Source: Octopus vulgaris (taxonomy: Eukaryota). Taken from it: 64,000 nt of DNA. The notes under the pieces were generated by a model. The model had not been told where the DNA came from and made no database searches. It saw nothing but the letters and a program-made list of their open reading frames with translations. How positions within the stretch are numbered: the first letter of the stretch is position 1; each line of letters begins with the position of its first letter. The DNA is taken from positions 110,050,001 through 110,114,000 of the forward strand of contig OX597820.1 of the NCBI GenBank assembly GCA_951406725.2, given 5' to 3'. A program made the translations under genes and the position numbers. Of this stretch, positions 10,056 to 11,880 are shown piece by piece.

Positions 10056-11880
10056 TGTGCGTTCGAGGGCCTTTGCGCTCGCGCGCCTTTGCGCTCGCGC
10101 GCCTTGGCGCGCGCTGGGGGCTCGGTCGGCCCCTTTGGGCTTGCGTTGTACTGCTTGTGCGTTGTGTGCGTGAGCGCGCTTCGTGTGTGTGGGCTTGCTT
10201 CGGATGTGCGCATGCGTATGTTTGCATACATACCCACACACTCGCATGCATCCCTACCCACATACATACACGCACACCTACTCACACACACACATACACA
10301 CACACATACCCGCACACACACACACATACATACATACACACACATACCCACTTCAGACATACACACACACAGACATACACCCATACACTCACACTCACAC
10401 GCATACACACACACACATACACATGCACACGTACACATACACACACACACACACCTACATACATACATTACACTTGTATACACACACACTTACATTCATA
10501 CACACACACCTACACAGCCATACCCTCACTCAGACACACACATCTACCTACACACACACACAAACACACACTGACACACACCCATACTTACATACATCTA
10601 CACACTCACGCCTACACACATACATACACACATACATAAACACACACTTACACATACACACACATACGCACACACGCATATACTTATACACATGCACACA
10701 CACACACATACATACACACACACATACATACACACACGCATACATACACCCATACACATACATGCATCCTACACACACATACATACACACTCACACATAC
10801 ATACACACACACGCACTCACTCACACACCTGCATGTTCGCGCACACACATGCACATACACACACTTCCCCACACCCACACGTACATACATACACACTCAT
10901 ACACATACACACACACACACACACGGACATACATCTATGCACACACATACATACACACATACTCACATACATTCATCGGACACACTGCCACCCAGACAGA
11001 CACACTCACACATCCACACACACACATACGTACGCGCACACTCGCAGGCGCGCGCACACACGCGCTTGCACCGGTTCGCGCACGCATGCGCGCCGCATGC
11101 ACCTCGCCCTTGGACCCGACGAGACCTCCCGCCCGTTCCTGGGATGTCGCTTGTCGTTGGGTTTTCCCACGCCCGTCTCCGCGGGACCACTCTTCCATCT
11201 TCCCCTCCGCTGGAGTCCTTTTCCTTAACCCCCCCCTTTTTCGTTACACACACGCGCACACATATACACACATTGCTTAAACATATACATTACTCTTACA
11301 CACATTCAATCTACTCGCCATTAATACTACCAAGACACTGGACACACACACACACTACTACCCAACACACGCTGGCACGCTACATACGCCCCCACCCCTT
11401 CCCCTCCCTCCCTTCCTCCTTCCTCCCTTTTCTTACTACTGACCTTTGTCTGCTATGCTGCTGCTATGCTGACCACCGTCTCGCCCTACCTCACACGCAC
11501 ACACTAACACATACATATATTTTTTGTTTTTTTATCTCGCCTCACACACACACATACACACACGCACACGCACACACTCACACATACACACACATCTGTT
11601 GCGTTACCAACCTTGTCTCCACCCTTTTGCCTTTAAAAACCCACTTTGCTCTTGTTATCGTAAACATCCGCCTTTCACCATGTGTAACTCCTAACACCAG
11701 TCGTTTTTTTCTCTATCTCCGTGGCCCGCTCTGGGATCTTTCTTTCCTCTCTCTTCCTTCTTTATGTTTCCGACGAAGAGCTCCGCTCGAAACGTCATAC
11801 CTCCCTGCTTCCATTTCCTGAGCGCCTATTAATAATAATACTGTAATTGTTCCTTTGTTGTTGTTTTTTGTTTCCCGTTT
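10056..11880 (+). mobile_element. Non-coding CA-rich element ending in a PLE-type hammerhead-like tail, with two A-depleted, G-rich patches
   Basis: Bounded by (TA)n on both sides. Hammerhead-like motif at 11766-11800; the tail resembles 34400-34590. Confidence 0.6.
11766..11800 (+). ncRNA. Minimal hammerhead-like motif (U4C variant, imperfect stem I)
   Basis: gttt-CCGACGA-a-GAGC-tcc-GCTC-GAAA-cg-TC-atac, with palindromic ACGT in place of stem III. Confidence 0.55.

Follow-up and report, generated by a model that had tools for sequence, protein, structure and literature searches.

The window, the 64-kb stretch of Octopus vulgaris DNA that was analysed, contains at 10057-11879 a sequence that lies between two (TA)n tracts and represents the 3' end of a longer repeat. 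The features at this locus are as follows (O, M, P and Y denote subfamilies of the repeat).

8900-10056, no strand assigned: insertion target, a (TA)n/TATG microsatellite that flanks the copy 5'
10057-11879, plus strand: 5'-truncated copy of a young, high-copy Penelope-like retrotransposon, of which just the 3'UTR is present
10057-10229, plus strand: arm 1, an inverted duplicate of 11027-11224, cut at its own 5' end
10231-11026, plus strand: CA-rich spacer, A-rich and G-poor, which forms the fold-back loop
11027-11224, plus strand: arm 2, which keeps the original orientation of the segment and also has A>G changes; orthologue of the single P segment
11765-11800, plus strand: minimal hammerhead-ribozyme-like candidate motif of the terminal repeat, located by eye
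11880-12740, no strand assigned: (TA)n microsatellite on the 3' side

The initial annotation of this DNA had drawn attention to an A-poor, G-rich block at 10056-10203, and its counts hold on recounting. The block contains 3 A and 59 G, together with 42 C, 44 T and 22 CpG, and the A-free run within it, 10067-10149, is 83 nt long; the sequence downstream is A-rich and G-poor as described (323 A and 35 G in 10231-11030). This run is the second-longest A-free run in the 64-kb window. The longest (56980-57122, 143 nt) is G-free as well, and is thus a pyrimidine tract. A second G-rich, A-poor zone, absent from the earlier description, lies at 11031-11200 (21 A, 45 G) and corresponds to the partner arm.

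The block is a genuine feature of the DNA. It matches its own genome at 96–100% in all 40 scored matches (of 450 candidates, the window included), and is present in 20 of 24 listed public runs, none of them recorded as RNA. Among 1,173 contigs of one DNA-type run, no G>A variant reached 3%; at or above this level there were 5 places with C>T, 3 with T>G, 2 with T>A and 1 with G>T. The RNA-type runs contributed 1, 1 and 0 contigs covering the block. An artefact of base-calling or RNA-polishing is refuted, and its probability is negligible, since the block is multi-copy on 12 contigs, recurs in runs of 7 studies and is graded across subfamilies.

The full unit of the repeat is ∼6.2 kb long and contains a 950-aa ORF with reverse transcriptase (RT) and GIY-YIG regions. 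When parts of the ORF were searched separately, RVT_1 and GIY-YIG were detected with E-values of 2.7e-4 and 7.6e-4, both below the Pfam cut-offs, and the whole 950-aa protein matched no Pfam family; homologues that are 45–58% identical carry PF00078, and many also PF01541. A C-x4-C-x2-C motif precedes GIY-YIG in the translation, in agreement with the CX2-5CxxC linker between RT and endonuclease (EN) given as a feature of Neptune and Nematis (PMC8557442). The 3' kilobase of the long copy L097 is repeated upstream of the ORF as a pseudo-LTR, tandem units on contig C10 are ∼6.17 kb apart, and a further copy (L054) carries an inverted 889-nt copy of the 3' end. By its domain organization, the element is an EN+ Penelope-like element with one ORF that combines RT with GIY-YIG at its C terminus. 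The family is very young, as 137 of 150 scored matches are identical over 84 aa (genome searches scored the best candidates only, and copy numbers here are those among scored matches). The CA tract spans ∼800 nt in the window copy and ∼1,470 nt in L097.

The hammerhead-like candidate has the core, a 4-bp stem II, an extra base after position 9 and a palindromic 15.2-16.2 region. By eye, it appears to fit the minimal descriptor (PMC4209133), and it is kept in Y, M, P and the related family Q. An Rfam search of the sequence gave 37 weak matches, none of them at the gathering score and none a hammerhead, and the motif is absent from the minimum free energy (MFE) fold.

Several other repeats are present in the window. 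A LINE on the plus strand (4980-8890), with a CCCH-like motif in ORF1 and a broken endonuclease-RT ORF, ends at the (TA)n tract, and a 3' fragment related to it occupies ∼14140-14866 on the minus strand. A perfect 355-nt inverted repeat (12750-13104 and 13645-13999) surrounds a GIY-YIG-like fragment of another Penelope-like family and shows no A>G skew; a 1.4-kb inverted repeat of 99% identity is found at 31491-32924 and 36667-38109. The segments at 2045-3122 (minus), 16401-17284 (plus) and 21532-21906 (minus) are, by eye, presumably fragments from other Penelope-like families, namely their GIY-YIG ends, and a piece of a mariner-like transposase. The (TA)n tracts at 8900-10056, 11880-12740 and 14867-16373 have plus-strand G/C counts of 122/3, 31/0 and 165/0. 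Slippage of TATG units explains this near-absence of C, and edited (UA)n hairpins would look alike.

An inverted duplication within the 3'UTR

A degenerate endonuclease motif served to gather sister subfamilies (37 matches, 30 taken), as did a follow-up search (40 scored of 1,080 candidates, 30 taken). The ancestral subfamily, P, is represented by 17 copies, namely 16 of the 40 scored P matches and L139. Since the zone at 11031-11200 is orthologous to an A-rich 3'UTR segment of P, P has this segment once, and subfamilies O, M and the young Y, to which the window copy belongs, have it twice, in inverted orientation. The arms are ∼177–190 nt long and are separated by ∼1 kb in the window copy and by 0.4–1.7 kb among O, M and Y. 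Arm 1 consists of a unique core, from 10057 to ∼10145, followed by an inverted CA (TG-rich) tract, and carries the inherited A>G changes as well as a 16-nt tandem repeat. No second arm was found in the 17 P copies within the stretch examined, nor was an unedited two-arm intermediate; two further searches for a less-edited copy (37 and 28 candidates) were also negative. The more distant families L140-L144 are without such a block. In one old copy (L172), the middle of arm 1 has apparently been replaced by a TG-rich repeat.

The relationship between arm 1 and the P segment emerges once A and G are treated as equivalent. In such a collapsed-alphabet alignment, made on both strands, the old block differs from the reverse complement of the P segment by 40 A>G. 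Reversed P aligned with three O copies yields local scores of 100–126, against 56–64 for the best of 300 shuffles and 50–58 in the control in which C and T are collapsed. The window copy alone does not match reversed P significantly (score 36, equalled or exceeded by 41 of 300 shuffles; for L097, 43 and 15 of 300), because later drift eroded the arm. The L097 block aligns directly with the O block (score 86; shuffles at most 27), and the window copy is linked by alignment to P via O and M copies, with some uncertainty in the repeat-rich parts.

The initial annotation had proposed that a hyper-edited transcript was retrotransposed into this site and that an A-rich paralogue should exist. Its mechanism largely stands: the predicted paralogue is the P segment, nearly every difference from it is a sense-strand A>G, these changes being confined to the arms, and the host is indeed an RNA-copying element in an octopus. 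Its reconstruction does not. The conversion belongs to a retrotransposon's master lineage and predates the insertion in the window, and does not represent a single transcript retrocopied at this locus. Nor is the unedited source the CA repeat that adjoins the block on the same strand: against the element's own CA tract, with A and G collapsed, the block scores 48, with a shuffled maximum of 47. The source is a different 3'UTR segment, in reverse complement. Replacing every G by A, as had been done, over-corrects: 13 of the 34 G in the window core were already G in the ancestor and only 12 arose from ancestral A, via G in basal O copies. The 3' half of arm 1 is the inverted CA tract, in which many C result from later T>C changes. 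Back-conversion of G to A on the same strand was discarded, as the A-forced probe had no matches and the CA-tract alignment was at the shuffle level.

A>G changes and their direction

The basal O majority was compared with the majority of 17 P copies in a transition-symmetric alignment of 124 nt, the sense strand being defined by the ORF. Over both arms, A>G is found at 42 of 64 A/G columns, and other transitions at 8 of 171 (p∼3e-22). Arm 1 shows A>G at 29 of 39 sites, with T>C at 0/26, G>A at 0/24 and C>T at 2/28; the corresponding values for arm 2 are 13/25, 4/42, 2/26 and 0/25. Outside the arms, A>G falls to 7/595 (1/109 at the ORF end, 1/98 after the stop and 5/388 downstream of arm 2). 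Changes present in both of the most basal O groups, with 4 and 5 copies respectively, which are assigned to the stem of the clade, comprise A>G at 28 of 45 sites and other transitions at 1 of 156; by type, they are 28 A>G, 1 G>A, and neither T>C nor C>T. The sense-strand G>A of an APOBEC-edited retroelement is thus not seen (1/49 on the stem). The changes are dense and unidirectional on the transcript strand and are confined to a potential long dsRNA with both arms altered, as in ADAR hyper-editing.

Sequence context gives a weaker signal. In the basal O majority, an A that follows G is changed at 2 of 7 sites, compared to 40 of 57 elsewhere (p 0.04); with the test restricted to stem-shared sites, the difference is not significant (2/6 vs 26/39, p 0.18). 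Sorted by 3' neighbour, the changed fractions are 6/7 for G, 19/21 for C, 8/15 for A and 9/21 for U. Few sites are involved, and their order is that reported for human ADARs (PMC3113232). A 5'-neighbour test on the residual A of the window alone (p 0.0096) was set aside, as its bounds were picked post hoc and L097 gave p 0.72. An ADAR is present in the organism: the genome contains four A_deamin loci, and an ADAR2-type protein named from Octopus vulgaris is matched exactly by one exon.

Eleven ancestral-A sites differ between O subgroups. This suggests later rounds of change, although gene conversion or decay could explain some of them. Three copies of subgroup O3 (L208, L209 and L210) have an extra TG-rich insert directly after arm 2, which base-pairs with the CA flank that precedes arm 1. 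The predicted duplex is ∼-80 kcal/mol, compared to -5 to -8 kcal/mol in other groups. In rough alignments, this flank has more A>G (12–21) than G>A (0–6). The insert is possibly a second event, in which a new duplex was followed by new editing.

The direction of change is indicated by both the phylogeny and the arms themselves. In an ORF tree rooted on family Q, built from the 35 of 57 rows that retain enough ORF, the P copies are basal and paraphyletic, and O, M and Y form one clade (UFBoot 100) with a stem of 0.018 substitutions per site. The two arms polarise each other: at 25 ancestral A-T pairs the change was to G.T and at 13 T-A pairs to T.G, with 24 of 25 ancestral G-C pairs unchanged. 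Across 11 two-arm copies, G.U and U.G pairs together number 33–53, versus 2–20 for A.C and C.A. No such skew was observed in 13 other inverted repeats from the window and the long loci (e.g. 64 vs 47, 19 vs 14).

Later pairing of the arms and origin of the changes

The window arms are predicted to form a duplex of -172.1 kcal/mol, stronger than any of 100 shuffles (mean -132.7, sd 7.5, best -149.2). In the MFE fold of the whole 3'UTR of the young element, arm 2 pairs with only 66 of the 156 paired arm-1 bases. Arm 1 folded locally on its own gave z -1.55, and an alignment fold of arm 1 with the adjacent CA tract, from which the 5' half of old copies is absent, gave no covariation support. Ancestral A-T pairs that are now G-C number 2, 5, 6, 10 and 11 in O2, O3, O1, M and Y, respectively. 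From O1 to Y, U>C occurred at 21 of 35 sites opposite G and at 8 of 37 opposite A (p 0.0016); the same test is weaker elsewhere in the series, with p 0.03 from O1 to M, p 0.23 from O2 to O1 and p 0.49 from O2 to O3. As later U>C turned many G.U into G-C, the young-family arms still pair. This replacement may reflect selection, arm-to-arm copying, or both. Editing of an antisense RNA as the source of the later U>C was rejected, as the disfavoured context is not avoided (11/21 vs 35/81, p 0.47).

Between young and old copies, 56 of 61 young G are also G in the old majority (derived from 18 of 31 rows, the 13 excluded ones being partial or truncated). Among the differences T>C prevails (15), with 3 A>G. 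Ongoing editing was not detected in young copies: across 102 aligned pieces, the rate of singleton A>G did not exceed that of T>C in any of 7 regions, and clean clusters of A>G were absent, in a sample biased against edited copies, as the pieces were picked as best matches. Private changes of the young family are more often T>C than A>G on the sense strand in every region (0.54 vs 0.19 per kb in the ORF), an excess that, in our view, is as expected of wobble errors by RT.

We consider ADAR hyper-editing of a fold-back RNA, reverse-transcribed into the master lineage of the element and inherited by its descendants, to be the most probable origin of the block, with a probability of roughly 85%. 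Comparison of genomic copies demonstrates the type of element, the inverted duplication, the arm-confined A>G on the sense strand, its direction and its inheritance; the remaining steps would be as follows. In one active lineage, ∼180 nt of the 3'UTR were evidently duplicated in inverted orientation ∼1 kb upstream of the original, and the RNA of the element is computed to fold back into a long duplex. ADAR, acting on this RNA in the germ line and mostly in one burst, would have deaminated most adenosines of both arms. Reverse transcriptases read inosine as G. If the enzyme of the element copied it likewise, the edited RNA would have become a new germ-line master copy; such a copy is invoked because all descendant subfamilies have the changes in common. 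The pattern then points to a few further A>G in sub-lineages and to later U>C that turned many G.U into G-C. Finally, the young family apparently spread to hundreds of sites, one of which lies in the window, where a truncated copy starts inside arm 1.

Other processes could in principle yield the same directional A>G burst without ADAR acting on RNA: the RT of the element may have misincorporated bases in a biased way, or a DNA hairpin or RNA:DNA hybrid may have been deaminated at integration. The identification of the enzyme is indirect and the neighbour signal weak, and ADAR editing of DNA in hybrids is cited within PMC12925331. However, the changes end at the arm ends, affect both arms and lie on the sense strand, and T>C and C>T outweigh A>G among the current errors of young copies; such an origin is unlikely. 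Ordinary mutation under selection for pairing, in which G.U is tolerated and A.C is not, or GC-biased conversion, would dispense with editing altogether. The arms remain complementary and later U>C is enriched opposite G, such that pairing may indeed be under selection. Yet C>T generates G.U equally well and is the commoner mutation, while the short stem branch (0.018 per site) bears its 28 A>G without a single C>T or T>C; GC-biased conversion would have raised T>C equally. This explanation is strongly disfavoured.

The block might also be an ordinary conserved G/U-rich repeat that is A-poor only as an inverted CA tract. This is partly true of the 3' half of arm 1, and both the preponderance of T>C between young and old copies and the failure of the A-forced probe fit such a repeat. 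It leaves unexplained the 42 A>G relative to P and the G.U skew between the arms, and the comparison with P refutes it for the unique core of arm 1; as a general account it is very improbable. Similarly remote is the reverse direction, in which the old state would be the G/C-rich one, and C>U or G>A hypermutation of an AID/APOBEC-like type, with loss of one arm, would have given rise to P. Root family Q has no recognisable copy of the segment (no arm-2 match) and so cannot polarise the arm sites directly, and support along the P backbone is modest (58–85). Against this, P is basal and paraphyletic in the ORF tree, and would have to combine the T of arm 2 at 25 sites with the state of arm 1 at 13, the exact unedited mosaic.

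A wider role for heritable editing by ADAR is conceivable. ADAR might be a recurrent, heritable mutator of active germ-line retrotransposons in octopus, with each new RNA duplex edited and rewritten to DNA, the G-C-repaired stem now a selected cis-element of the most active lineage, and many CpG-rich islands of coleoid repeats so derived. We regard this generalization as speculative and less likely than not.

Comparison with known systems

RNA editing is normally not inherited. The subfamily series described here, with an unedited ancestor, edited descendants and a compensated young family, preserves what is apparently a single hyper-editing burst that was amplified in the genome. If the proposed origin is correct, it would imply ADAR activity on transposon RNA in the octopus germ line, would show that hyper-edited retrotransposon RNA can remain competent, and would supply a source of CpG-rich sequence within an AT-rich genome. 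The skew of G.U versus A.C between internal inverted-repeat arms would then offer a simple genome-only test for how frequently editing is rewritten to DNA. In the open-access literature (subscription journals lay outside the search), we found no description of ADAR-type edits that became fixed in the master lineage of a retrotransposon, and none of this kind for Penelope-like elements or cephalopods. A-to-G hypermutated avian retroviruses were reportedly described by Felder (1994) and by Hajjar and Linial (1995), as summarised in reviews.

The octopus element resembles Neptune/Nematis-type elements, as characterized in PMC8557442 and PMC4209133, in its RT and C-terminal GIY-YIG, Cys-rich linker, partial tandem pseudo-LTR, (TA)n targets and minimal hammerhead (here a candidate), a likeness based on shared features and not on placement in the reference tree. 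It differs from them in its long CA-rich 3'UTR with an internal edited inverted duplication. A preprint on retrozymes (10.64898/2026.07.22.740005) has, in the part available, no bearing on inherited edits.

A close parallel is found in the avian retroviruses with A-to-G hypermutation, in the LTR of a Rous-associated virus and in an inverted repeat of an avian leukosis virus vector (PMC12925331, PMC8586724). There, according to the same sources, about half of the inverted-repeat adenosines show A>G, the changes entered DNA by reverse transcription, and they are ascribed to ADAR. However, these cases concern infectious retroviruses, whereas the octopus element is endogenous and non-viral, and its changes lie in a germ-line master lineage that was amplified genome-wide and then compensated. 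Footprints of 'DNA editing' by APOBEC are known in genomic LTR retrotransposons (PMC4866542, PMC2873906). They are similar as deaminase footprints in retroelement copies, where unidirectional, strand-biased clusters are polarised by a consensus; they differ in being G>A changes from cytidine deamination of cDNA in individual copies, as described there, compared to A>G tied to an RNA duplex and carried by whole subfamilies in octopus. Young repeats in fold-backs are reported as the main target of ADAR in animals, with an exceptionally strong hyper-editing signal in octopus and heavy editing of a lizard Penelope at the RNA level (PMC5625713, PMC9989829). Such hyper-editing of animal repeats is seen as differences between RNA and DNA, whereas the change in the octopus element sits in the DNA.
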